38,879 bases of DNA from Myxococcota bacterium (GTDB taxonomy: Bacteria; Myxococcota_A; UBA796; SXON01): NCBI GenBank assembly GCA_964202365.1, contig CAXNIN010000002.1, forward strand, positions 1-38,879. The letters run 5' to 3'. Positions 1 to 28,600 of the stretch are shown here, piece after piece. A program made the translations under genes and the position numbers. The notes beneath the pieces were generated by a model. It was not told the origin of the DNA and did no database searches. It worked only from the letters and a program-made list of their open reading frames with translations. Numbering within the stretch: the stretch's first letter is position 1; each line of letters starts with the position of its first letter.

Positions 1-1547
1 CCCTCATCGGGGCGCTCCACGGCCTGCTCCCGAACGACCGCTTCCGCATCGTCGCGTTCGACGACCAGATCGAGGAGTTCCGCAAGGGCTTCACGCCGTA
101 CGAGAACCGCACGCTCGAAGCGGCCGACGCGTGGGTGGCGCGCCTTCAGCCGCGCGGCGGCACCGAGATGTTGCCGGCAATCACGACGTCCCTCGAGGGC
201 GAGACCCCCGCGGGGCGCGTGCGCACCGTGCTCTTCATCACCGACGGCCAGGCGCACAACGAGCAGGCGCTCGTGGCCGCCGTCGCCAACCGGCGGGGCG
301 CGGGGCGGTTCTTCACGCTCGGCATCGACACCGCCGTCAACGGCGCGCTCCTCGGGCGCCTCGCCCGCGTCGGCGGCGGGACGTGCGAGCTGTGCACGCC
401 GAGCGACGACATCGAGGCGCTCGTGAGCCGCATCGAGGCGCGGTTCGGGATGCCGCTCGCGGAGGTCAAGGTCGAAGGCGGGGAGATCGCGGGCCCGGCG
501 GACCGCGCGCTGTTCGCCGGCCGCCCGGTCACGGCGCTGCTGCGCGGGACGGGCCCGGTGCGCGTCGAAGGCCGCACGGCCACCGGCACGTTCACCCACA
601 CGCTCACCCCCACCCCGATCACGTTCCCGCTCGGCGCGCTCTGGGCCCGCGAGCGCGTCGCGGAGCTCGAAGACCGCCTCACGCTTCGCCCCTTCGAGGA
701 AGAAGCGCTCCGGGGGGAGATCCTCCGGGTTGCGCTCGCGCACCACATCGCGTCGCGCTTCACGGCGTTCGTCGCGGTGGAGACCACGTCCGCGGCCGAC
801 CCCGGCACGCGGGTCGAGGTCGTGCAGCCCGCGGCGCTCCCCGCCGAGTGGTCGTCCGCGTTCGGCGGCGGCGGCGGCCCCGCCGGCGGGCAGGTGGTGA
901 TGTCGGCGTCGCGGGCGATGGCCCCGCGCGCGCAGACGCTCCCGCCGGACCTGGCGTACTACGACGAGGCCGACGACGAGGGGCAGATGCTCCCGTCCGC
1001 CCCGCCGCCCCTGGCGAAGAGCGCGAGCCCGCTCCGCCGCGCGCTCGGGAAGATGCACGGCGCCGTCGTCGGCGCGCTGGCGACCCCCAGCGGGCGCGAC
1101 GCACCCCCCGAGAGGGAGCGGGAAGCGTTGGCCTCGCAGCCGCGGCCGAGCGCCGCGCCGGCCGCCGATTTGGCCCGCCGCCGCGCGGCGCCCGCGCGCG
1201 TCGAAGCGGAGTCCACCGCGCCCGCGCCCGCCGCCGACCCGGGCGCCGAGCTGGCCCGCACCCAGTCGGCGGACGGCAGCTATGGCGGCAGCGTCGCCCG
1301 GACCGCGGCCGCGCTCCTCGCGCTGGTCGTGCTGGGCAACACGCGCCACGCCGGGCTCCGGAAGCGCGCAGTGCTCAAGGCGGCCACCTGGCTCGGCAAG
1401 CACGCCGCGGACCCCAACGCGTCGGTCGCCCTGGCCGCGCTCGCGCGCGTCGAGCGCGGGGACGACGCGGGGCGCAAACACGAGCTCCGCATGCTCGTCG
1501 ACGAGAGCCCCGAGGGACGCATCCTCGCCGGGCTGCTCGGCGTCTGA
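1..1547 (+). CDS. von Willebrand factor A (VWA) domain protein, 5'-truncated by window edge
   Basis: Frame 3 is open from the window edge (LIGALHGLLPNDRFRIVAFDDQIEEF...), so track ORF 135..1547 is only the internal-Met part. VWA-fold hallmarks are present: RIVAFDD, GGTEMLPAI, RTVLFITDGQ, FFTLGID. Stop is TGA at 1545-1547. GC3 is very high. Confidence 0.8.
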   Translation, partial: LIGALHGLLPNDRFRIVAFDDQIEEFRKGFTPYENRTLEAADAWVARLQPRGGTEMLPAITTSLEGETPAGRVRTVLFITDGQAHNEQALVAAVANRRGAGRFFTLGIDTAVNGALLGRLARVGGGTCELCTPSDDIEALVSRIEARFGMPLAEVKVEGGEIAGPADRALFAGRPVTALLRGTGPVRVEGRTATGTFTHTLTPTPITFPLGALWARERVAELEDRLTLRPFEEEALRGEILRVALAHHIASRFTAFVAVETTSAADPGTRVEVVQPAALPAEWSSAFGGGGGPAGGQVVMSASRAMAPRAQTLPPDLAYYDEADDEGQMLPSAPPPLAKSASPLRRALGKMHGAVVGALATPSGRDAPPEREREALASQPRPSAAPAADLARRRAAPARVEAESTAPAPAADPGAELARTQSADGSYGGSVARTAAALLALVVLGNTRHAGLRKRAVLKAATWLGKHAADPNASVALAALARVERGDDAGRKHELRMLVDESPEGRILAGLLGV

Positions 1548-16424: not shown

Positions 16425-19415
16425 CTACTTCTTGACGGGCTCGTCGGCCTTCTTCTTGGCCTCTTCCTTCTTCTTCTTCTCGTCGGCCTTGAGCACGTCC
16501 TTGAGGTTGTGCTTGGTGGCGTAGTCGAGCTTCGCCTGCTTCCAGTCGAACACCTCGACCGTGAGGCCGGCCTTCTCGAAGTAGGGCTTGATCACCTCGA
16601 CCGGGCCGATCGCGGTCACGACTTCGTGACCGACGCACGTGTCGAGCAGGGGCTGGATCTGCTTCATGTCGACGTTCGCGAGCTGCTTCGCGTACATGCC
16701 GAAGAAGTCGGCGCCCCAGCCGTAGCCGACGAGCGTGCTGCGGAGGCGGCCGATCATCTGCGCGGTCGACTGGTGGCCCGCGACGTAGCCCTGCGCGCGG
16801 TTGTACTTGACGATCTGGAGGGTCTTGACCGGGATCTTCCCGTCCTTGGCCCACTGGCCGAGGTCGAGGAAGGTCTTGGCGGCCATCCCCGCCGCGTCGT
16901 TCTGCACGAGGCCCCCCATGCTCAGGGTGGCGCCGCCGCCCTTGTACATGGAAGCGGCGGCGTAGGCGCCGTACGACGCGCCGGTCTGCTCGCGGAGCGC
17001 CAGCCACGTGCTCTCGGAGAGCGCGTCCCCGAGGATCTGCGCGGCCGCGACGTTCTTGTCGTCAACCTTGCCGAGCTGGCAGGAGTAGCTCACCTGGGTC
17101 TGCGAGCTGTTGTCCTTGTTGAAGAGGAGCACCTGGCGCGCCGGGGGCGTCGGGAGCGGGGGGTAGGTGGTGCGGAGCGGCTTCGCGGCCGCGGGCGCCT
17201 TGCCCCAACCCTTCCACCCGCCGAAGTAGGTCTCGGCGGCCTTGTTGGCCTCTTCCTGCGACACGTTCCCGACGATGAGGAGCGTGGCGTTCTCCGGGCG
17301 GAGGAGCTGCGAGAACACGTCCTGGGTCACCGCGGTGGTCCAGGTGTTCATCTGCTCGTAGTCCGTGTGGGTCGGCCAGCGGGAGAGCGGGTGGCCCGGC
17401 ATCAGGCGCTCTTGCGCGATGTTCGCCGCCCAGGCGGCCGGGTCCTTCATCCACCCGAGGATGTCCTTCTGGCGGCCCTTTACCCAGTCCAACCGACCGT
17501 TGGTGTACGGCTTGAGGTTGTCGAGGCGGTCACGGAGCACGAAGAGGGCGTCCTCGATGTTGCCGGCCGAGGCCGAGATGTCGAACGAGGTGGAGAGCCC
17601 GTCCATCCCGCTGGAGTCGAATCCGACGATGCTGAGCGGGTCCACCACGCTCTCGTCCATCCACATCGTGCCGGCGAAGAGCGCTTCGAAGCCGTCGGTG
17701 CTGTCGCTGCCGCCGTCGAAGACGAGGTTCACCTGAACGAGCGGGCCGTTCGAGTGCTGCATGGTCACGAGGTCCACGCCGCTCGGGAGCGTCGACTGAC
17801 GCAGCTTCTTCACGTCCGGGGGGAGCACGGCCGCTTCGATGAAGTCGGCGGTGAGCTGAGCCTCGGAGAGGGAGGTCTCGAGCACGTCCTCGCGACGGGC
17901 GCCGCGGTACTGGGCGTCCGAGGTGTCCTGCGAGAGGTCGCCTTCCTCGTAGGGGACCATGAGGATGGCGGCGGCGCGGGACCGGTTGAGGTACTTCTCG
18001 GCGAGGTTGCGCGCGTCGTTCGCTTCCACCATCTTGAGCCACTCGAACTGGCGCGAGTAGAAGAGGAGGTCACCGGTGTAGTGCACGAAGTCCGCGCCGG
18101 CGGCCACGCGGGTACTGCCGACGGACGACGTGTTGTCGACGGTCTGGAGGATCATCGCCATCTGCGCCGTCTTCGAGTAGCTGAACACGTAGTTCTGGAA
18201 CTTGCGGTACATCTCGTCCGCGCTCCAGAGCCGGTAGAGCCCGTCGAGCGCCTGCTCGGCGGTGCGCTCGGCGTCCTTCTCGTCGCTGATCTCGATGACG
18301 CAGTACGCGATCGAGGCTTCCTTCTGCGCCTGCATGCCGCAGCCGAGGCTGGAGAGCGGGCCGCTGTCCTTGGAGTAGTCCCAGTTCGGGTACAGCTCCT
18401 GGCGGATGGCGGAGGTCATCTGGTTGGCCGCCATCTCCATCATGGGCTGGTCGGGGCGGTAGCCGCCGGGGAGCGTCCAGCCGAGCACGATCGTCGGCTT
18501 CTCGACCGCGCCGATCTCCCGGGTGAGGCCCTTCACGTCGCCCTTGATGAGGAGCGGAGCGGGAGGAGCGGGAGGCTCGGCGGCCGGGCCCGAGATGCGG
18601 GGCTTCGGGTCGATGAGCTTCATCTCGGCGGTCGGGTCCTTGGGATCGACGAGCTGGTCGATCGCGAACTCGTCGAGGAACTTCGGGGTGTCGTCGAGGT
18701 CGAAGTCGCCGACGACGAGGATCGTCGTGTTCGACGGCGTGTAGTTGTCCACGAAGAACTTCTTGATGTCCGGCAGCGTGATCGCGTTGAGCGAGTCGTT
18801 GTTGCCGATGCCCGCGTACGCCGCGCGGCCGTACGGGTGGTTCGACGGGAACAACTTCACGGACATGTAGCCGAACGCCGCGCCGAACGCGTTCTCGTAG
18901 CGCATGCGGAGCTCGTTGCGCACGACCTCGCGCTCGGTGAGGAGCACCTCGTTCGTCACGCCTTCCCAGGCGCTCTTGAGCCGAATGGACTCAAGCCGAA
19001 GGAGCGGGATGAGCTTGTCCGCAGGGGCGATGGACATGTAGTTCGTCCAGTCGTCCGCGGTGGAGGCGTTGAGGTTGGCGCCCATGTCGCGCAGGAGGTC
19101 CCACACCTTCGGGAGCTCCTTGCCTTCCGCGTCCCTTTGCTTGGACCGGAACCACATGTGCTCGGCGACGTGCGCGATGCCCTCGAGGCCGGGGGGGTCG
19201 GAGGTCGACCCGCGGTCGATGACGGACGTGATCGAGACCAGCGGCTGGCTGTGGTCTTCCTGGAAGATGATCCGGAGCCCGGAAGGGAAGTTGAAGTCCC
19301 GCATCGGGATGTCGTACTGCTTGAGCTTGAGCTCCATCTTCGCGCGGGGCGGCGCATCGGCGGCGGCCACGAGGGGCATCAGCCCGAGGGCGAGGAAGAA
19401 GGGGAGGCGGCGCAT
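16425..19415 (-). CDS. secreted M16 (pitrilysin/insulinase) family zinc peptidase, about 996 aa
   Basis: Track ORF is 16425..19958; start taken at ATG 19415 (MRRLPFFLALGLMPLVAAADA, a signal peptide) with GGAGAG upstream. Zinc motif HxxEH = HVAEH. Two M16 halves. Lys-rich C-terminal tail. Confidence 0.9.
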   Translation of the reverse strand: MRRLPFFLALGLMPLVAAADAPPRAKMELKLKQYDIPMRDFNFPSGLRIIFQEDHSQPLVSITSVIDRGSTSDPPGLEGIAHVAEHMWFRSKQRDAEGKELPKVWDLLRDMGANLNASTADDWTNYMSIAPADKLIPLLRLESIRLKSAWEGVTNEVLLTEREVVRNELRMRYENAFGAAFGYMSVKLFPSNHPYGRAAYAGIGNNDSLNAITLPDIKKFFVDNYTPSNTTILVVGDFDLDDTPKFLDEFAIDQLVDPKDPTAEMKLIDPKPRISGPAAEPPAPPAPLLIKGDVKGLTREIGAVEKPTIVLGWTLPGGYRPDQPMMEMAANQMTSAIRQELYPNWDYSKDSGPLSSLGCGMQAQKEASIAYCVIEISDEKDAERTAEQALDGLYRLWSADEMYRKFQNYVFSYSKTAQMAMILQTVDNTSSVGSTRVAAGADFVHYTGDLLFYSRQFEWLKMVEANDARNLAEKYLNRSRAAAILMVPYEEGDLSQDTSDAQYRGARREDVLETSLSEAQLTADFIEAAVLPPDVKKLRQSTLPSGVDLVTMQHSNGPLVQVNLVFDGGSDSTDGFEALFAGTMWMDESVVDPLSIVGFDSSGMDGLSTSFDISASAGNIEDALFVLRDRLDNLKPYTNGRLDWVKGRQKDILGWMKDPAAWAANIAQERLMPGHPLSRWPTHTDYEQMNTWTTAVTQDVFSQLLRPENATLLIVGNVSQEEANKAAETYFGGWKGWGKAPAAAKPLRTTYPPLPTPPARQVLLFNKDNSSQTQVSYSCQLGKVDDKNVAAAQILGDALSESTWLALREQTGASYGAYAAASMYKGGGATLSMGGLVQNDAAGMAAKTFLDLGQWAKDGKIPVKTLQIVKYNRAQGYVAGHQSTAQMIGRLRSTLVGYGWGADFFGMYAKQLANVDMKQIQPLLDTCVGHEVVTAIGPVEVIKPYFEKAGLTVEVFDWKQAKLDYATKHNLKDVLKADEKKKKEEAKKKADEPVKK

Positions 19416-19550: not shown

Positions 19551-19739
19551 ATGCGAATGCGTAAGCCTCTCGCCATCGTTGTCGGGTTCGCGTTCGTCGC
19601 GGGGTCCGGTGCGCTCGCGTATATGGCCCTCCGCCCCGAGCCCGAGCCGCCCCCCGCGCTCGACGCCGAGAAGTCGTACGACCAGATCGAGCGTCCCGAG
19701 TACGAAAAGTGGATGCAGGACCTCGGCTACACCGAGTAG
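19551..19739 (+). CDS. 62-aa membrane-anchored proline-rich mini-protein
   Basis: The only plausible coding part of the artefactual track ORF 16371..19739: MRMRKPLAIVVGFAFVAGSGALAYMALRPEPEPPPALDAEKSYDQIERPEYEKWMQDLGYTE. It has a charged N-region, one TM helix and a PEPEPPP tract. GC3 is mostly G/C. Its stop is 7 nt before the next gene. Confidence 0.5.
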   Translation: MRMRKPLAIVVGFAFVAGSGALAYMALRPEPEPPPALDAEKSYDQIERPEYEKWMQDLGYTE

Positions 19740-19746
19740 CCGGCGC

Positions 19747-20685
19747 GTGCGCTCCCTCCCCTTCACTCTCCTCGTTGTCTTCTGCATCGCGACGCTGCTC
19801 GGCGTTCGGTTCCTCTTGGAGCCGTTCGCGTCGGTCGCGGCCGATGTCGTCGCCGCCGCGTCGCCCGACGGCGTAATGGCGCTTCCGCCGAAGCCCGAGG
19901 GGCTCGACGCGCGCCCGGCCGGCGAAGATGGCGAGGGAGAAGGCCAGGCGTTGCTCACGCCGGATGCCTGCGCCGCGATGGCGCCCGATGTCCAGGACGT
20001 GTGCTTCCAGGCGCTCGCCCGCCAGCAGGCCCCGCGCGATCCGCGCGGCGCGCTTCAGATCTGCGAGCGCATCCGCGACGAAGAGCTCCTGCTGGAATGC
20101 GAGGCCGACATCGCCGAGGCGATCGCGCCGATGGACCGCGCCGTGGCCGAGGAGATCTGCACCGCAATCCCCGTGATGAAGTGGCGCGGCCAGTGCCACT
20201 TCGGCATGGGGCTGGCCCTCGCGGAGATCGACCCCGTCTACGCGATGGGGCGGTGCGAGCAGAGCGAGGCCTTCCGCGACTTCTGCCGGCACGACGTGGT
20301 GGGCGAGATCGCGCTCGAGAACGTCGAGCTCGCCGTGCCTTTCTGCGCGCGCGAAGAAGGCGACACCCTCACGCGAAAGACCTGCTGGCACGGCATCGGG
20401 AAGTACCTGGCCCGCCGCTCCTTTGACGAAGCCGGCGCCGCCTGCGCGCGCTCCACCGAGTCGTGGCGCGGCAACTGCTGGCACGGCGTGGGCTGGGGGG
20501 CCGCCGAGCGCGACCCCGACGCCACCCTCGCCGCGTGCGCGAAGGTCGAGACCTACGCGGACAACTGCCGGCAGGGCGTTGCCCACCAGCTCAAGCGATT
20601 CGACCCCGCCCGAGGGGTCGCCCTCTGCGAGAGCATCGCGACCTCCGCCATCCGCGAGCGCTGCCTCGCCTTCCTGACGAGATGA
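19747..20685 (+). CDS. signal-anchored Cys-pair repeat protein (8 repeats), unknown family
   Basis: In frame with track ORF 19579..20685. GTG 19747 gives VRSLPFTLLVVFCIATLLGVRFLL, a signal/anchor. The mature part contains 16 Cys arranged as 8 x [C-x9-12-C] separated by exactly 19 residues. Confidence 0.65.
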   Translation: MRSLPFTLLVVFCIATLLGVRFLLEPFASVAADVVAAASPDGVMALPPKPEGLDARPAGEDGEGEGQALLTPDACAAMAPDVQDVCFQALARQQAPRDPRGALQICERIRDEELLLECEADIAEAIAPMDRAVAEEICTAIPVMKWRGQCHFGMGLALAEIDPVYAMGRCEQSEAFRDFCRHDVVGEIALENVELAVPFCAREEGDTLTRKTCWHGIGKYLARRSFDEAGAACARSTESWRGNCWHGVGWGAAERDPDATLAACAKVETYADNCRQGVAHQLKRFDPARGVALCESIATSAIRERCLAFLTR

Positions 20686-20689
20686 CCCC

Positions 20690-21298
20690 ATGCTGACCTA
20701 CCTGATCACCTCGTTCTCGGGCGAAGCCGCCTTCTTCATGTACACCCTGCTCGTGGTGATGGCGTTCGCGATCGCCGTGATGGTCGAGCGCGCCTACACC
20801 CTCACGCGGTACCGCTGCGACACCGACGCGCTCATCGGCAAGCTCGACGCCGCTGTGAAGGGCGGCACCACCGGCGCCGTCACCCTCGGCGACACCCCGG
20901 CCGAGGCGGTCGCCCGCGCCGGGCTCGCCTACGCCGACCCCGACCTCGCCTGGGAAGCGATGGCCGCCGCCTCGGTCGACGCGGAGCTGAAGGTACGCCG
21001 CCGCATCGCGTACCTGTCCGCCGTGGCCTCGATCGCGACGATGGTGGGCCTCTTCGGCACGGTATACGGGCTCATCCTCGCCTTCGGCGCGCTCGGCGAC
21101 GTCGCCGCCGCAGAACGCGCGGCGCAGCTCTCCGAGGGGAGCTCCACCGCCATGGCAACCACGGCGTTCGGCCTGCTCGTGGCGATCCCCGCGCTCGGCG
21201 CCCACTCCCTCGCCGACGCCACCGCCCGCGAGCTCCTCGGCAACATCGAGCGGGTCGCGACGCGACTTGTCCTCGCGCTGAAGGCCGCGCGCGCGTGA
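20690..21298 (+). CDS. MotA/TolQ/ExbB proton-channel family protein
   Basis: 202-aa ORF with three TM helices in the family-typical arrangement. The conserved TM2-TM3 region reads SIATMVGLFGTVYGLILAF ... TAFGLLVAIPA. Confidence 0.9.
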   Translation: MLTYLITSFSGEAAFFMYTLLVVMAFAIAVMVERAYTLTRYRCDTDALIGKLDAAVKGGTTGAVTLGDTPAEAVARAGLAYADPDLAWEAMAAASVDAELKVRRRIAYLSAVASIATMVGLFGTVYGLILAFGALGDVAAAERAAQLSEGSSTAMATTAFGLLVAIPALGAHSLADATARELLGNIERVATRLVLALKAARA

Positions 21299-21846
21299 GT
21301 CAGCCGGCTCCGCACCCGAACCCCGCGCCCCGGCGCCGGCGTCCGCTGTTCCGTCACGGCGCCGCGGCCGAGGCCGACGTGCGCCCCACCCTCCTCGGGG
21401 TGGTGACGTTGATGTTCCTGCTGCTGTTCTTCCTGCTCACGACGTCGTCCGGCCAGCGGCTGGGCGTCATCGATCTGCGGCTCGGTTCCCCGGCAGATCT
21501 CGCGCCGCTCCCGCACGCGGGCTTGATCAAGGACGTGCGCGTCACCCTCAACGGCGCCAGCCTCACCTTGAGCTACGAGGTGCAGTCGACGGACATCGCC
21601 GCCGCGGCCACCTCCGTGGAGCGCCGCGAGCAGGTGTTCCCGGCCAAGAACGCCAAGCCCGACCTCGCGGCCCTCCTCGCCGCGCTCGTCGCCGTGCACG
21701 ACATCGACCGGTCGCAGGAGCGCGCGCGCCTCGCTCCGGACGACACCGCCACCACCGAAACCATTATCGCCGTGATGGACGTGATCCACGGCCCCACCGA
21801 CGCGCCGCTGTTCCCGAAGGTGACGCTCACGGGGAGCCCCGGATGA
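21295..21846 (+). CDS. ExbD/TolR-like protein, divergent (no TM aspartate)
   Basis: 183-aa ORF. Its GTG start overlaps the ExbB stop (GTGA at 21295-21298). One N-terminal TM helix (RPTLLGVVTLMFLLLFFLL) followed by a periplasmic domain. The canonical P-x-x-D of ExbD/TolR is replaced by P-T-L-L-G. Confidence 0.75.
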   Translation: MSQPAPHPNPAPRRRRPLFRHGAAAEADVRPTLLGVVTLMFLLLFFLLTTSSGQRLGVIDLRLGSPADLAPLPHAGLIKDVRVTLNGASLTLSYEVQSTDIAAAATSVERREQVFPAKNAKPDLAALLAALVAVHDIDRSQERARLAPDDTATTETIIAVMDVIHGPTDAPLFPKVTLTGSPG

Positions 21847-22292
21847 GGCGCTTGTTCAAACGGGCCGACGCGGAGCCCCTCCCCGGGCTCGACGTCGGCG
21901 CGCTCGCGCCCCTCGTCGATATGATGACGTTGATGCTGGTCTTCCTGCTGCGCTCCTACTCCACGGAAGCCGCGCCGGCCCCGCCCGAGGGCCACTTCGA
22001 GCTCGCGGGCACCGTGTCCGAGGAGACCCGCAAGCCGGCGGTGGAGATCCTGATCTCCCAGGAAGCCATCTACGTGGACGGCCGCCGTGTGGTCGCCGTC
22101 GCCTACCTCCCCGAAGAGCTGCTCGTGCGGGAATTGTACGACCCGCTGCTGCTCATGCGTGGGAAGGCGCGCGTGGAAGTCCACGCCGACCGCACCATCC
22201 CGTGGAGCGTGCTGAAGCGCGTGCTCCACACGGCGCGCACCGCCGGCTTCGAAGATCTCTCCCTCGTCGCGGCGAGCACCTCGAGCTTGTGA
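21843..22292 (+). CDS. ExbD/TolR family biopolymer transport protein
   Basis: 149-aa ORF. Its ATG overlaps the previous stop (ATGA at 21843-21846). The TM helix carries the conserved Asp (APLVDMMTLMLVFLL). Typical periplasmic domain. Confidence 0.85.
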   Translation: MRRLFKRADAEPLPGLDVGALAPLVDMMTLMLVFLLRSYSTEAAPAPPEGHFELAGTVSEETRKPAVEILISQEAIYVDGRRVVAVAYLPEELLVRELYDPLLLMRGKARVEVHADRTIPWSVLKRVLHTARTAGFEDLSLVAASTSSL

Positions 22293-22442
22293 TGGACGGG
22301 GGTGCCCCCCCACCGTCGCACATCCCCTGGGGCACGCGCGCCTCAGCCCTGCGCCGGCCGCTCCGCGGGGCGCCACCGACGCCGATCGTTCCACCCTCGT
22401 CACACGGCACGGGGCTTGCTACTCTGGGCCACGGAGGCCCGC

Positions 22443-23693
22443 ATGCTGGTCGCGCTGTTGCTCGGCTGCTCGGACTACGAGCTCGACAAGACCACCGACG
22501 ATCCCCTCGTGCCCGAGCCCGACATCGTCGTCGAGCCGTCCGTGCTGGAGTGGCCGACCGTCGGCGTCGGGTGCATCGAAGAGCAGATTGTGACGGTGTC
22601 GAACGTCGGGAGCGGGCCGCTCTCGCTCGAGAGCACGGTGTTCGAAGGCGACCCCGCGTGGTCGGCCGAGCTCCGCGACGACACGATCCAACCCGGCGAA
22701 CAGATCAGCTTTACCGTACGGTTCTCCCCAACGGTGGCCGGTGAGGTGAGCGGGACGGTGCGGGTGATCTCGGACGACCCGGACGAGGAAGAGGTCACCG
22801 TGGACTCCATCGGCCGCGGGGCCGCGGAGGGCCTCCTAAGCGACCGGTTCGTCCAGGAGGCCGAGCCGGTGGATGTCCTGTGGGTCATCGACAACTCGGG
22901 CTCGATGGCCCAGGAACAGGCGCGCGTGGCGGCGGCGATCCGCTCGTTCTTCGACTGGTTCACCACGCTGAACCTCGACTACCACATGGGCGTCATCACC
23001 ACCGACGTCGTGAATCCCGTGTACTCGGGGCAGCTCGTGGGCGCCCCCATCTACCTCGACTCCACCACGCCGAACGCCGCCGCCGAGCTCGCCGAGGCGA
23101 TCGAGGTGGGCACGGAGGACATGGGCGACGAGTCCGGGCTCGCGGCGCTCCAGCTCGCGCTCTCCGAGCCGGCCCGCTCCGGCTACAACGCGGGGTTCCT
23201 CCGCGAGAACGCCCACCTCGCCGTTGTCTTCCTCTCGGACGAACCCGAGTTCTCGGCGCAGGACTCCGCCCACTACATCACCTTCCTCCAGGGCATCAAG
23301 GCCGACCCGGATGACATCCTCGTCTCCGCGATTGTCGGCGACTACGGCACCGGCTGCAGCGCCACGTGCGACGGCACGACCCAGGACGCCCAGCCCGGCG
23401 ACAAGTACATCGACGTGGTGACCGCCTACAACGGCGTCTACGGCAGCATCTGCACGTGCGGCCTCGCCCCCGTGCTCGACGAGATCGGCATGGAGACCAC
23501 CCGGTACATCCGGAGCTTCGTGCTCTCCGACGTGCCCACCGACCCCGCGGCCATCGTGGTGTACGTCAACAGCGAAGTCGCGGCCACCGGGTGGACCTGG
23601 GTGGAGCTCACGAACGAGATCGTGTTCGACGTCCCGCCCATCAACGGGTCCGAGGTGGTGGTGCGCTACCCGGCGGCCCTCACCTGCGGGTAG
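22443..23693 (+). CDS. lipoprotein with beta-sandwich (ASH/choice-of-anchor-D-like) N-domain and VWA domain, paralog 1
   Basis: In track ORF 22302..23693. I prefer ATG 22443 (MLVALLLGC lipobox). MIDAS motif DNSGS, plus ITTD and FLSDE. Collinear with the next gene. The GTG 22302 start cannot be excluded. Confidence 0.8.
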   Translation: MLVALLLGCSDYELDKTTDDPLVPEPDIVVEPSVLEWPTVGVGCIEEQIVTVSNVGSGPLSLESTVFEGDPAWSAELRDDTIQPGEQISFTVRFSPTVAGEVSGTVRVISDDPDEEEVTVDSIGRGAAEGLLSDRFVQEAEPVDVLWVIDNSGSMAQEQARVAAAIRSFFDWFTTLNLDYHMGVITTDVVNPVYSGQLVGAPIYLDSTTPNAAAELAEAIEVGTEDMGDESGLAALQLALSEPARSGYNAGFLRENAHLAVVFLSDEPEFSAQDSAHYITFLQGIKADPDDILVSAIVGDYGTGCSATCDGTTQDAQPGDKYIDVVTAYNGVYGSICTCGLAPVLDEIGMETTRYIRSFVLSDVPTDPAAIVVYVNSEVAATGWTWVELTNEIVFDVPPINGSEVVVRYPAALTCG

Positions 23694-23814
23694 CGGGGCG
23701 GCGCGCCCGACCCGGGCCGAGGCGTGGGCTCGACCGCGAACCAGACGTGGAGGACGGTGCTTAGTTCAGGGGTGTGCTGATTCGCCGCCGGGGGGCGGCC
23801 AAGGGGGCCACGCC

Positions 23815-25077
23815 ATGTCTCTGCTCTGGATGTTCGCCTGCTCGGACCGGGGCTTCACCCTCGTGCGCGAGGAGCCTCTCGCGCCCGAGCCCGACATCCA
23901 GGTGGAGCCGCTCGAGGTAGCGTTCGACCCTGTCGCGGTCGGGTGCGTGAGCGAGCGGCCGATCACCATCACCAACGTGGGGCGTGGGCCGCTCGATGTC
24001 GAGAGCGTGTGGGTGAAGGGCTTCGACGAGACCGTCAACGACTACGGCGTGGAGTCCCTCGAAGGCACCGTGCTTCCCGGGGAAACCGAGACGGTCTTCC
24101 TCCGGTTCGAGCCGAGCTTCGTGTGGGACACCGCCGTCGACCTCGTGGTCACCTCCGACGACCCGGACGAGGCCGAGGTGCGGCTCCCCGTCTCGGGCGG
24201 GAGCTTCGACCCCACGTGGAACCTCGACGTGTTCGACCAGGCGCCGGACGCCATCGACGTGCTCTGGGTCATCGACAACTCCGGGTCGATGTACCAGGAA
24301 CGCGACAGGGTGAAACGCGAGATCCAGGAGTTCTTCCAGTGGTTTGAAGCACTCGATCTCGACTACCACATGGGTGTCATCACGACGGACGTGCTCAACC
24401 CGATCTACGCGGGGCAGCTCGTCGGAACGCCCACCTTCGTGACACGGGACACCCCGGACGCACAGGCCTCGCTCGGGCTCGCCATCACGTCCGACGGCCT
24501 CGAGATGGGCGACGAAGCCGGCCTCCAGGCGATGGAGCTCGCGCTCTCCGAGCCGCTGCGCTCGGGGGTGAACGAGGGGTTCTACCGGGAAGACGCGCGC
24601 CTCGTCGTCATCTTCCTCACCGACGAGGACGACCAGTCCGCCCCCGCCGCGTCCGAGTACGTGCGCTTCCTCGAAGACCTCAAGGGGGGCCGGGAGGACA
24701 TCTTCGTGGCGGCCATCGTCGGCGACCGCGACGAGGGGTGCGAGGGAGAGTGTACGGACGGTAAGCAGGAGGCCAAGGGCGGGGACAAGTACCTCGATGT
24801 CGCCGAGGCCTTCTCCGGGTTCGACGAGAGCATCTGCACATGCGACCTCGCCCCGGCGATGGAGCGGATGGGCATTGAGAGCACCTACTACGTTCGGACG
24901 TTCACGCTCTCGCGCACGCCCGGCGAGCCGTCGATGCTCACGGTGTGGGTGAACGGCGTCGAGGCGGGCGGGTGGCGCTACGAGCCCGCGCCCAACGCGA
25001 TCGTGTTCGACGAGGCGCCCGCGCGCGGGGCGGAGATCGTCGCGCGGTACCCGGTCGAGGACCCCTGCGGCGAGTGA
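23815..25077 (+). CDS. lipoprotein with beta-sandwich (ASH/choice-of-anchor-D-like) N-domain and VWA domain, paralog 2
   Basis: 420-aa ORF. ATG 23815 is the only in-frame start (leader MSLLWMFAC). MIDAS motif DNSGS, plus ITTD and FLTDE. Shares long motifs with paralog 1: [44 protein letters not shown]. Confidence 0.85.
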
Positions 25078-26459: not shown

Positions 26460-27656
26460 TCAGGCGATGCCCACCCGCCACACCCGCTCCCGTCCTCCAA
26501 TCCAGATGGCGCCCGGCACGGCCGCGAGCGACCAGGGCCGCTCCAGCGCAACCTCGACGCGCTCCAGCACGCCGTCCACCAGCACGAAGAGCCGCCCTTC
26601 GGCGAGCGCCCAGAGGCGCCCCTCGGGGGCTACCGCGAGGGCGGTCGGCTCGGGGGTCTGGGTGGTCCAGGACGCCCCGTCGAAGCGGTGGAGCGCGCCG
26701 AGCGCCGAGACCCAGAGCGCACCCTCCGCAAACGCGAGGTGCCGCACCGGGCGCGGCTTGTGGTCCGCGAACTTCCGGATCGGGCCTCCGCCGTCGACCA
26801 CGTGGATCTCGCCGGACCGCGTCCCCGCGTACACCACGCCCGCGGAGTCCGCCGCGAGGCTGAGCGCATCGAGCGGCCCGTCGCCGCCCTCGAAGCGCGA
26901 ACGGTAGCCCGCGTAGATCCGTCCGTTGGCGGCGAGCAGGGCGTTCAGGTCGTCGAAGCCGTCCTCGAGATCGGGGCCGTGCCGGCGCGAGGTCACGCGC
27001 GCGGCGAAGTCCCACACGTACAACGTCTGGCTCGTCGCGATGTGGAGGTGCCGCTGGTGCACCGCCATCGCCTCCACGCGGCGCGCCTCCCGGCGGGAGC
27101 CCTTCGGCCACGGAAAGGGCGTGAACGTGCCGCCCTTCTCGAGGGTGAGTCCGTAGTCGGAGCCGAGCGCCACGCCGCCCGGGATGGGCTCCACGCAGCG
27201 CACGGTCGCCACCTCGACGTCGCCGATCTCGAGCGTGCTCCACGAGCGCACTTCGCGCACGGACGCCGGCCGGGTGGGCCGGGACTGCCAGCGCAGCCAG
27301 GTGCGGGCGGGGTCGTCGACAGGCACCGCGCGCGCCTTCGGCCCGGGCGGGCGCCCGGCGAAGAGCCCGGCGAGCGCGGAATCGGGCGTCGGGCGCGCGG
27401 CGTCGGCCGCGAGGAGCACGGCGTCAGCCGCGTCCGCGGAGACGGCGTCGCCGGTGGTGCCGCCGACAGCCCCGTCGGCGCCGATCAGGGCGGCCCGGAG
27501 GTGAAACGGATCGGGGTTGCCCATCCGCGCCGCGATTCGCGCGCGCGCAAGCCCGAGCCCGGCTTCGTCGAGCGTCTCCAGCACGGCCGGGGCGGGGCCG
27601 GACGGCACCGCGAAGCGCGTCGCGACGCGCGCGCCTGCTACGAGGGCGTCCCCCAT
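26460..27656 (-). CDS. hypothetical protein with beta-propeller-like (Reg_prop-like) repeats
   Basis: Track ORF is 26460..28199. Start taken at ATG 27656 (MGDALVAG...), which overlaps the upstream stop (TGATG). GC3 is high from that point onward. C-terminal repeats of the type ALWVSALGALHRFDG, RLWALAEGRLFVLVDG, AIWIGGRERVWRV. No signal peptide seen. Confidence 0.6.
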   Translation of the reverse strand: MGDALVAGARVATRFAVPSGPAPAVLETLDEAGLGLARARIAARMGNPDPFHLRAALIGADGAVGGTTGDAVSADAADAVLLAADAARPTPDSALAGLFAGRPPGPKARAVPVDDPARTWLRWQSRPTRPASVREVRSWSTLEIGDVEVATVRCVEPIPGGVALGSDYGLTLEKGGTFTPFPWPKGSRREARRVEAMAVHQRHLHIATSQTLYVWDFAARVTSRRHGPDLEDGFDDLNALLAANGRIYAGYRSRFEGGDGPLDALSLAADSAGVVYAGTRSGEIHVVDGGGPIRKFADHKPRPVRHLAFAEGALWVSALGALHRFDGASWTTQTPEPTALAVAPEGRLWALAEGRLFVLVDGVLERVEVALERPWSLAAVPGAIWIGGRERVWRVGIA

Positions 27657-28123
27657 CAGGGGGTGCCGGTGTCGCCGCCGGTGTCGCCCGTATCGTCGGG
27701 GGGCACGTAGCCTTCGGGCCACGCGGCGAGCGGGATGATGAGGTTCGCGTTGTCGGGGTCGCTCGTGCGCAAACGAAGCTGGCCTTCCGACGGCTCCGCC
27801 ACGTCGAGATCGGCCACGACGGAGTAGGACGCGGTCTGCTCGGGCGCGAGCTCGATGTCCTCCACATCGTCGAAGTAGAACACCTCGTCCGGGTTGGCGA
27901 CGAGGCGGATCTCGTAGATCCGAAGGTTCGACGTTCCAACGCTCGTGACGGTGAAGCTCTCGCTCTTCGAGAAGCCCACGACGATGTCGGCCACGACGAT
28001 CTCGGTCTTGTCGACCGTGAGGCGCCCGTCTCCGTTGACGGCCTCGTTGTCGCCGCTCCCGTTCGTGAGCGTGGTGTCCGGCGCGCCGCACGCGGCGAGC
28101 ATCAGGAGCGCAACGATTCGCAT
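27656..28123 (-). CDS. small lipoprotein with beta-sandwich (ASH/choice-of-anchor-D-like) domain
   Basis: Track ORF is 27656..28189; start taken at ATG 28123 (MRIVALLMLAACG lipobox) with GGAGGAAGAG immediately upstream. The domain pattern FSKSESFTVTSVGTSNLRI ... LRLRTSDPDN resembles the N-domains of the two VWA lipoproteins. Confidence 0.7.
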   Translation of the reverse strand: MRIVALLMLAACGAPDTTLTNGSGDNEAVNGDGRLTVDKTEIVVADIVVGFSKSESFTVTSVGTSNLRIYEIRLVANPDEVFYFDDVEDIELAPEQTASYSVVADLDVAEPSEGQLRLRTSDPDNANLIIPLAAWPEGYVPPDDTGDTGGDTGTP

Positions 28124-28168
28124 CTCTTCCTCCGGTCGGGCAGTGTAGATGATTCGCGGAGCAGGTGC

Positions 28169-28600
28169 ATGGCGTCGGTTGGGTACCACGACAAGGCATT
28201 CCCCCGACGCGTGCGGGTCTGCATCGAGGTTCCCCGCCTAAGCTTCGTCAAACGGGGCGGTGCGCGCATCGAGTATGTGTCCCCGCTTCCGTGTCCGTTC
28301 AACTACGGGTCGGTGCCCGACACGCTCGCCCCCGACGGGGATCCGCTCGACGCCGTCGTCCTCGGGCCCCGCCTCGCCGTGGGCGCGAACGTCGACGTCG
28401 ACGTACACGCGGTCGTGCGCTTCGTCGACGACGGCGCGGTCGACGACAAGCTCGTGTGCGGTCCGGCGCCCAGCGCGGCGGACATCCGGCGGCTCACGCG
28501 GTTCTTCCGCGTGTACGCCGTCGCCCGCGGTTGGATGAACCGGGCCCGCGGGCGCGCGGGCGTTACCCGCTTCGACGGCGTGGAGCGGCTCCCCCTCTGA
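28169..28600 (+). CDS. short inorganic pyrophosphatase-like protein (family I PPase fold, truncated)
   Basis: 143-aa ORF with GGAG 7 nt upstream. PPase family I motifs FNYGSVPDTLAPDGDPLDAVVL and FVDDGAVDDKLV are present, but the protein is about 30 aa shorter than E. coli PPase and diverges at the N- and C-terminal ends. Confidence 0.7.
   Translation: MASVGYHDKAFPRRVRVCIEVPRLSFVKRGGARIEYVSPLPCPFNYGSVPDTLAPDGDPLDAVVLGPRLAVGANVDVDVHAVVRFVDDGAVDDKLVCGPAPSAADIRRLTRFFRVYAVARGWMNRARGRAGVTRFDGVERLPL

Follow-up and report, generated by a model that had tools for sequence, protein, structure and literature searches.

A stretch of DNA from a Myxococcota bacterium (GCA_964202365.1, contig CAXNIN010000002.1, positions 1 to 38,879 of the forward strand; GTDB lineage Myxococcota_A; UBA796; SXON01), called the window here at its full length of 38,879 nucleotides (nt), carries seven co-directional open reading frames (ORFs) between positions 19551 and 25077 of the plus strand. 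In order, these are mini, Cys, exbB, exbD', exbD, VWA1, and VWA2, and they encode a small membrane protein, a protein of repeats with paired cysteines, the subunits of a stator, and two lipoprotein-like proteins with VWA domains. The first five genes may specify a Tol/Ton/Agl-type motor with the Cys protein as its transducer, a reading that is put forward tentatively, at rather less than even confidence. The locus is a lineage-restricted variant among non-canonical Tol/Ton/Agl-type motor modules and not a categorically new system. It is set apart by a pair of uncatalogued partner proteins and an unusual putative plug with a single Asp; the link to adhesins is optional and does not define the locus.

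The window has a G+C content of about 71%, and its close relatives are metagenome-assembled genomes (MAGs) labelled Myxococcota or "Deltaproteobacteria," mainly from lakes (Mendota, Erken, Baikal, and Tanganyika among them). Within the cluster, mini and Cys are separated by 7 nt (19739/19747), and Cys and exbB by 4 nt (20685/20690), while exbB/exbD' and exbD'/exbD share start/stop overlaps of 4 nt each (21295-21298 and 21843-21846). The gap 5' of VWA1 is 150 nt and that 5' of VWA2 is 121 nt; neither contains a terminator, and scans for sigma-70 promoters and terminators gave nothing useful. An earlier reading of the DNA (the original prediction) had proposed that the seven genes could be a self-contained, undescribed module that uses proton motive force to handle VWA adhesins, and the order, coordinates, and spacing on which it was built were all reproduced in the sequence.

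ExbB, with three transmembrane (TM) helices, matches PF01618 at 79 bits, against a gathering score of 22.9, which places it in the MotA/TolQ/ExbB superfamily. Its closest solved relative is TolQ (2.6e-10), and alignment with TolQ of E. coli shows that GLFGTVxG and TTAxGLxxAIPA are conserved, both pore Thr positions (in TM2 and TM3) included. ExbD likewise belongs to the ExbD/TolR superfamily (42.1 bits to PF02472, against a gathering score of 25.4), and its profile matches ExbD structures at 1.4e-6. It retains the TM Asp (LAPLVDMMTLMLVFLLRSYST; LAPLVDMMTLM), D26 being invariant in 13 orthologues. The domain scan thus upholds the families to which both proteins had been assigned. The subunits are far from the curated standards, however: ExbB scores 56.5 bits against a cut-off of 221 for the tolQ equivalog of NCBIfam (TIGR02796) and 33.8 against 206 for that of exbB (TIGR02797), while ExbD and ExbD' lie far beneath the TolR/ExbD equivalog cut-offs (for tolR, 17 bits against 127). 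NCBIfam scans assigned none of the stator subunits to an AglR/AglQ/AglS-type family. The matches listed by a homologue search with ExbB were all from within the lineage, at identities of at least 58%, distant stator relatives being outside the reach of that search.

The case of ExbD' is different. It had been described as an ExbD/TolR-like protein without the TM Asp, and the absence of the Asp is confirmed: in 19 of 19 aligned orthologues, the TM segment ADVRPTLLGVVTLMFLLLFFLL, nearly invariant in the lineage, has Gly/Leu at the position of the Asp of ExbD. Homology to ExbD is less secure. The match to PF02472 reaches 19.2 bits, below the gathering score of 25.4, so that membership in ExbD/TolR is not established by this measure; comparison with its paralogue ExbD by hhalign gives a probability of 57%, and a search of the Protein Data Bank (PDB) with the ExbD' profile returned no match. 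Since hhalign is weak and the PDB search empty, the label "ExbD-like" has to stay restricted. It is suggested by the position of the gene between exbB and exbD, by size and topology, and by weak profile matches, and these indicate only distant relatedness. The genes exbB, exbD', and exbD remain unseparated in about 30 loci, and with the pore motifs of ExbB and the Asp of ExbD in place, the stator looks functional, as far as sequence can tell.

The Cys protein had been predicted to be a signal-anchored protein of eight Cys-pair repeats, and so it proves. The AlphaFold model (pLDDT 91.4) places a TM helix at residues 4-37 and eight TPR-like helical hairpins at 72-311, with disorder between them at 39-63. 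Every hairpin has a short helix that ends with one Cys and a long helix that starts with the partner Cys, a layout that points to a disulfide staple and hence to a periplasmic location; the conservation of all eight pairs similarly argues for an oxidizing, periplasmic compartment. The 16 Cys and a P-P-K-P sequence are invariant across 56 sequences. The latter is part of a linker motif, M-x-x-P-P-K-P-x-G (MALPPKP in the window), that lies 7-15 residues past the TM helix in a region modelled at pLDDT <50 and that keeps its PPKP even in the most distant orthologues, P0362 and P0368.

A known family for the Cys protein or its small neighbor was sought in Pfam, NCBIfam, and, for the Cys protein, Foldseek, and none was found. 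The Cys protein has no match in Pfam or NCBIfam, the Sel1 and TPR models of Pfam included; it lacks the C-terminal domains of TonB (TonB_C, PF03544) and TolA (TolA_III), its C-terminal part being the TPR-like solenoid; and the best Foldseek match, the TPR of LGN/Pins (E = 0.02), is a generic TPR resemblance. There are 160 homologues, and the best 120 of the 160 are 55-99% identical to the Cys protein and all from MAGs. A profile search against 1.84 billion representatives found 406 proteins at E ≤0.001, many of them long and multi-repeat, but just 16 at ≤1e-30, from which it appears that the repeat type is widespread while the orthologous family is narrow. Nine of the 406 were sampled, and none had a significant Pfam match (two were marginal, E = 0.005-0.009, below gathering scores). 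By these searches, the Cys-pair helical repeat looks widespread yet uncatalogued. The repeat is about 30-33 amino acids (aa) long and may be written C-x10-13-C-[WFYH]-x-G-x-G or, in another rendering, C-x10-13-C-[WFH]-H-G-x-G. It occurs in P0380, P0384, P0404, and others, and the clusters that contain it include proteins of 1,000-3,500 aa with up to 11 matched stretches.

The mini-protein, also without a match in Pfam or NCBIfam, consists of a basic N-terminus, a Gly-rich TM helix, a variable linker that is usually rich in Pro and Glu, and a conserved extreme C-terminus. This last has the form E-x-W-M-x-x-L-G-Y-(T/V)-(E/D), which in the window is E-x-W-M-x-x-L-G-Y-T-E, and E52, W54, G59, and Y60 are invariant in an alignment of 17 sequences. 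The orthologues begin with MRK, which makes the ATG at 19557 a possible true start. An orthologous ORF lies directly 5' of the Cys gene in 33 of 33 genome loci. In five related loci of a clade that lacks an adjacent stator (L022, L024, L025, L027, and L034), the linker has no Pro-rich tract (e.g., WYWQHQHERGLADRPMADIP), while the C-terminal EYEKWMQDLGY and the PPKP of the Cys protein are both retained. The coincidence between loss of the tract and absence of the stator may simply reflect phylogeny.

How these genes travel together was examined in 33 genome loci found with a profile of the Cys protein, 80 metagenome loci found with a VWA profile, and 10 contigs found by exact protein look-up, all seven proteins being mapped onto the loci by tblastn and HMMs. 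Across some 40 related loci from freshwater Myxococcota MAGs, three blocks prove separable: mini with Cys, exbB-exbD'-exbD, and the VWA gene or genes. Mini and Cys, wherever they occur, are adjacent to each other. Of the 36 loci that bear a Cys gene, 27 have the five genes from mini to exbD in an unbroken row, and the gap between Cys and exbB is mostly 4-16 nt. A VWA gene lies downstream of exbD in only about 9 of the 27 stator loci with sufficient downstream sequence; in the rest, it is elsewhere. One conserved operon of all seven genes is rejected by the synteny across the 33 genome loci, the 80 metagenome loci, and 8 further contigs. The neighborhood search that the original prediction had called for therefore sustains the association of mini and Cys with exbB-exbD'-exbD, which are mostly found together, but not the self-contained unit of seven, the VWA genes being facultative neighbors. 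The absence of a TonB C-terminal domain, TolA, TolB, Pal, and TonB-dependent receptors from the window, also part of that prediction, held among the ORFs scanned, and genes for TonB, TolA, TolB, Pal, or TonB-dependent transporters (TBDTs) were found within 10 kb in none of the inspected loci.

Two loci, L120 and L121, have the stator but not mini-Cys. One of them, L121, and a locus with mini-Cys but no stator, L010, are contigs 123 and 87 of a single assembly, CANKTH01 (GCA_947486185.1), so in this genome, the only one in which the two blocks are seen unlinked, both are retained. In L121 (CANKTH010000123.1, 620-5994), the place 6 nt 5' of exbB is taken by a gene for an acidic double-disulfide repeat protein of 1,428 aa (NF033662, 2.5e-174, 34 repeats), and the same region encodes a PEGA-domain lipoprotein-like protein.

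A tandem pair of VWA genes 3' of exbD is found in the window clade, in L003-L007, L029, and L035, and probably in L036. In L041, which has one copy, the VWA gene begins 18 nt past exbD; in L029, the distance is about 37 nt. In L028, by contrast, an aminotransferase gene lies directly 3' of exbD. In L038-L040, orthologues at 53-55% identity are flanked by a gene for a Ser/Thr kinase on one side and an FG-GAP gene on the other. Full-length homologues that are 36-45% identical (P0310, P0323, and P0332) stand alone among unrelated genes.

VWA1 and VWA2 are paralogues, 47% identical. They had been described as lipoproteins with a beta-sandwich and a VWA domain with an intact MIDAS; the two domains and the MIDAS were borne out, and a C-terminal beta domain had been overlooked. 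The AF2 model of VWA1 (pLDDT 93) shows, in order, a PapD/ASH-like beta-sandwich, the VWA domain, and the small C-terminal beta domain, and Foldseek matches it to ITIH1, the integrin beta-I domain, SpaC, and HYDIN (probability 1.0 for integrin beta-I, ITIH1, and SpaC). The MIDAS (D-N-S-x-S...T...D) has D150, S152, S154, and D266 invariant in an alignment of 58 homologues; T186/T187, invariant or nearly so among 10 sequences, is lost from this wider alignment. It is the fold model together with D-x-S-x-S, T, and D that identifies a VWA domain with MIDAS, since Pfam VWA matches alone are below gathering scores. NCBIfam matches of VWA1 comprise choice_anchor_D (Table 1), MIDASAdhsBdello (2e-13), and CglD (1e-11), all under equivalog cut-offs. 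The CglD and Bdellovibrio MIDAS-adhesin equivalogs (NF033765, NF052240) have cut-offs of 700 and 400 bits, whereas VWA1 reaches 50 and 43 bits and VWA2 reaches 42 and 27; with both proteins, the match covers parts of the VWA domain, and neither can be counted a member. The paper on Bdellovibrio Bd0875 does not mention a stator context.

The signals of VWA1 and VWA2 (22443-22470 and 23815-23842) are short, as in the whole clade: 8-9 residues without a basic n-region, followed by the lipobox Cys (e.g., MLVALLLGC and MSLLWMFAC). Similarly short signals occur at L006:12658, L003:13985, and L041:7995, and several orthologues have no in-frame upstream start. In more distant members of the family, the lipoprotein signal peptides are of the ordinary kind, 15-25 residues long. 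Export and lipidation through the short signals are therefore putative. A longer, TM-bearing start of VWA1 at the GTG at 22302 was rejected, as neither the orthologues nor VWA2 have such an upstream start.

Table 1. Positions of the seven genes and of the divergent peptidase gene, with the basis of each call
Feature	Position	Strand	Basis
Mini-protein, 62 aa, bitopic	19551..19739	+	ORF; no match in Pfam/NCBIfam
Cys-pair repeat protein, 312 aa, membrane-anchored	19747..20685	+	AlphaFold model; no match in Pfam/NCBIfam
ExbB/TolQ/AglR-type proton-channel subunit, 202 aa, 3 TM	20690..21298	+	PF01618 2.7e-22
ExbD', divergent ExbD/TolR-like, 183 aa, lacking TM Asp	21295..21846	+	PF02472 1.3e-3, sub-gathering
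ExbD/TolR-type subunit, 149 aa, TM Asp present	21843..22292	+	PF02472 1.1e-10
VWA1, lipoprotein-like, 416 aa	22443..23693	+	choice_anchor_D 8e-13; AF2 model; Foldseek
VWA2, paralogue of VWA1 with like architecture, 420 aa	23815..25077	+	Pfam/NCBIfam scans and alignment
Secreted M16 (pitrilysin-like) peptidase, about 1,000 aa, divergent from the operon	16425..19415	-	PF00675 and PF05193

Gene content, domain identity, conservation, topology, and the synteny statistics are what the sequences show; all contacts between proteins and the physiological role proposed below are inferred. By analogy with the known families, the locus would encode a 5:2 proton motor of the Tol/Ton/Agl type, an ExbB/TolQ-like pentamer surrounding a heterodimeric plug of the Asp-bearing ExbD and the Asp-less ExbD'. 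Such a plug is plausible in view of two precedents: AglQ and AglS have been modelled as a heterodimer within AglR5 (PMC11761067), and pairs of heterologous tolR-like genes are reported from the vWA-motor clusters of PMC12204202. The likely output of the motor would be the neighboring membrane-tethered, disulfide-stapled, TPR-like Cys protein and not a homologue of TonB or TolA. Its TM helix would lie at the rim of the pentamer, and its helical solenoid would reach a partner in the periplasm and take hold of it. The MALPPKP strand might act as a "motor box" of the TonB/TolA type, inserted between the two ExbD periplasmic domains. [quoted passage not shown] The mini-protein may be an accessory subunit, which could plausibly bind the solenoid or the ExbD domains through its invariant C-terminal peptide. 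In the window clade, the two VWA/MIDAS lipoproteins would be probable clients or end effectors without being an obligatory part, although any involvement of VWA lipoproteins with the motor has to be rated unlikely.

Several observations weigh against this scheme. TolA, TonB, and the vWA transducers bind their motors through an S-H-L-S motif with its His (PMC12204202), and the TM helices of the Cys protein and the mini-protein have neither His nor the spacing of SHLS. The proposal that one or the other is a force transducer thus finds support in the bitopic topology of both but not in this motif. Nine loci (two clades and L010) carry mini-Cys with no stator within 3.7-10 kb, from which it follows that the linkage is not obligatory, and two thirds of the stator loci lack a VWA gene, the homologues of which mainly stand alone. 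In addition, the whole family belongs to one narrow, uncultured lineage, its members being 55-99% identical, so inherited gene order may account for some of the synteny in place of selection. Finally, the stator could instead be the partner of a canonical TonB or TolA from another part of the genome, the survey having covered the window and the flanks of the loci.

That last possibility, taken to its conclusion, is the rival that survives best: the stator would be a housekeeping or spare paralogue of ExbBD or TolQR, powering TonB or TolA at a distance, and the mini-protein, Cys protein, M16 peptidase, and VWA proteins would be unrelated envelope neighbors in a young lineage. It is an unlikely explanation, if one to be taken seriously. 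The separation of the three blocks in relatives, the lack of SHLS in both candidate partners, the confinement of homologues to a narrow lineage, and the gaps of 150 nt and 121 nt, which would permit the VWA genes promoters of their own, are all what it would lead one to expect. It accounts poorly, however, for subunits that score so far under the curated cut-offs for tolQ and tolR, for an invariant Asp-less ExbD', which is foreign to standard Ton and Tol operons, and for a Cys gene that in most loci stops within 4-16 nt of exbB. Nor would it predict an invariant linker motif precisely where TonB binds ExbD, or the lack of any TonB, TolA, TolB, Pal, or TBDT gene within 10 kb at the inspected loci.

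A second rival looks to gliding. Here, the stator would consist of orthologues of AglR, AglQ, and AglS, the VWA proteins would be adhesins like CglB and CglD, the TPR-like protein would replace GltC/GltD/GltE, and the whole, a reduced relative of Agl-Glt, would move or expose surface adhesins. Like AglRQS, the window has one ExbB and two unlike ExbD (PMC3169522, PMC11761067), and the ancestral "core complex" comprises aglRQS, TPR proteins, and a TonB-like protein (aglRQS with gltC, gltD, gltE, and gltG; PMC3169522). There is, moreover, a precedent for the arrangement. Three contigs of about 45% G+C (L099, L104, and L111) have, directly 5' of ExbB-ExbD-ExbD, a lipoprotein gene with a VWA domain that shares 29-33% identity with VWA1; a PilZ-GYF gene, likewise 5' of the aglR-like gene, lies next to these genes or between them (L099:6916-16127, L104:7932-16906, and L111:551-2964). 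L104 and L099 are of the Agl-Glt type and also encode a GltG-like protein (NF033760, 2e-44) that carries FHA and TonB_C, a small CglF-like protein, and TPR proteins that resemble GltD (977 aa in L099 and 1243 aa in L104). The adjacency of a VWA lipoprotein and an ExbB-ExbD-ExbD stator recurs independently, in gliding-type Agl-Glt clusters.

The resemblance extends to the stator itself. ExbB and its counterpart in the gliding cluster of L104 share 36% identity over 119 aa. The best pairwise match of ExbD is the second ExbD of L104/L099 (5e-16), with DMxxxLLVFLxxSYST in common, and the profile of ExbD' orthologues weakly matches the first ExbD of L104, a genuine gliding cluster (6e-5). That first ExbD lacks the TM Asp in L104 (LAPLLAVMVKL) and has it in L099. 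VWA1 and VWA2, in turn, partially match the models for CglD and the Bdellovibrio MIDAS adhesin, and cglB co-occurs with the complete Agl-Glt machinery (PMC9946355). Even so, a reduced Agl-Glt system is quite improbable. The window and the 10-kb flanks of its relatives yielded no homologue of GltG, GltJ, GltD, GltA, GltB, GltH, or GltK, the Cys and mini proteins match no Glt model, the CglD and MIDAS-adhesin scores are far under their cut-offs, and the MAGs derive from the water columns of lakes.

These clusters also bear on the claim that the module is undescribed, which was too strong. It is weakened by the VWA-stator adjacency in Bdellovibrio-like Agl-Glt clusters and by clusters published in 2025 in which a TPR gene, tolQ, two heterologous tolR genes, and a vWA gene follow one another (PMC12204202, Mol Biol Evol). 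The vWA proteins of the latter are force transducers, anchored in the inner membrane through a TM helix that bears SHLS, and two transducers are noted in Tichowtungia. That the window is simply a member of this class, with its VWA proteins as motor-bound force transducers, is very improbable despite the equal gene order and the double transducers of Tichowtungia, for the published transducers have an SHLS/His TM helix and a linker where, in the VWA proteins of the window, 8-9 residues precede a lipobox Cys, it is the TPR-like protein that is tethered in the window, and VWA is missing from most stator loci of the lineage. With neither a TM helix nor a long linker, VWA1 and VWA2 fall outside both class 1 (SHLS TM) and class 2 (Asp trans-pore helix) of that scheme.

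A motor with the Cys protein as transducer is thus the reading retained, and it might be carried one step further. Perhaps, though this is somewhat unlikely, the five-gene core represents a third motor-transducer pairing, in which a heterodimeric plug with a single Asp drives a stapled TPR-like solenoid instead of a TonB/TolA-fold or vWA domain, helped by a bitopic subunit of about 60 aa, for some envelope task confined to an uncultured lineage of freshwater Myxococcota; the VWA/MIDAS lipoproteins would then be outer-membrane (OM) clients in some clades.

The gene for the M16 peptidase lies upstream of and divergent from the cluster in about 26 of the 36 loci, some without a stator among them, so it is a frequent companion and not a universal one (it is missing at L001/L019, L008, L009, L017, L023, and L033). 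It may share a regulatory region with the mini and Cys genes. The peptidase is best regarded as a conserved neighbor and not as an established part of the system.

Elsewhere in the window, scans of about 35 other ORFs found housekeeping or unknown genes and none for TonB_C, TolA, TolB, Pal, TBDT, or Glt proteins, and scans with Rfam and for tRNAs were empty. A partial gene truncated at the left edge (135-1547, plus strand) has a VWA_3 domain and resembles the marine proteobacterial sortase target protein (TIGR03788, 2.8e-34); it is the third VWA-type protein in the window and unrelated to VWA1 and VWA2. A small lipoprotein with choice-of-anchor D (27656-28189, minus strand) adjoins an unannotated gene of about 396 aa (26460-27650, minus strand), and the position of this lipoprotein gene and of an aminotransferase gene is kept across all loci of the window clade. 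Between 35031 and 36900, the G+C content rises to about 77%, and long ORFs overlap on both strands, with no Pfam match and no clear coding frame by G+C at third codon positions (GC3).

Proton-driven 5:2 motors include MotAB, ExbBD, TolQR, AglRQS, GldLM, and ZorAB, and the outputs coupled to them are increasingly varied. If the reading offered here is true, it would widen the range of transducers by a partner neither TonB/TolA-like nor vWA-tethered, coupled to a plug with a single proton-accepting Asp, and that plug would provide a natural test of whether one Asp suffices for rotation. In any event, the locus adds two uncatalogued families, namely a membrane protein of 60 aa and a helical repeat with Cys pairs that recurs in hundreds of protein clusters. 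The facultative adjacency of VWA/MIDAS proteins and motors, moreover, links this lineage to the Bdellovibrio-like gliding clusters and to the PVC clusters (PMC12204202), which supports the idea that such motors commonly handle adhesins.

The locus may be compared with several known systems. Its likeness to ExbBD-TonB and TolQR-TolA lies in a tightly packed operon with a PF01618 channel that has the pore Thr motifs, a PF02472 subunit with the TM Asp, and a bitopic partner whose TM helix is joined to a periplasmic domain by a disordered membrane-proximal segment. It differs in having two unlike ExbD, one of them Asp-less, and subunits far under the equivalog cut-offs, and in that the window has no TonB_C, TolA C-terminal domain, or SHLS, and TolB, Pal, and TBDT are absent nearby. 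Helicobacter cysteine-rich proteins and Sel1-like repeats, in secreted or periplasmic proteins, are built of helix-turn-helix units whose helices are stapled by disulfides. The Cys protein resembles them in the predicted stapling of two helices per repeat, and it differs in the consensus of its repeat, in its match to no Sel1 or TPR model of Pfam, and in its N-terminal membrane anchor.

AglRQS-Glt with CglB and CglD, known from Myxococcus xanthus, has in common with the window one TolQ-like and two different TolR-like subunits, periplasmic proteins of the TPR type, and VWA/MIDAS lipoproteins, and by sequence comparison the window ExbD appears closest to the second ExbD of those Glt-type clusters in which a VWA lipoprotein gene lies beside the stator. 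The window, however, has no GltG/GltJ, GltD, or OM-platform genes, and its TPR-like protein is small, membrane-anchored, and Cys-stapled; its VWA proteins carry a PapD/ASH-like N-domain, unlike CglB, which has a beta-jellyroll. The vWA clusters of PMC12204202, compared by gene order and description, show the same succession, TPR-tolQ-tolR-tolR-vWA. There the vWA proteins are the transducers, whereas in the window they are lipoprotein-like and dispensable neighbors, and it is the TPR-like protein that bears the TM helix and the conserved linker motif.

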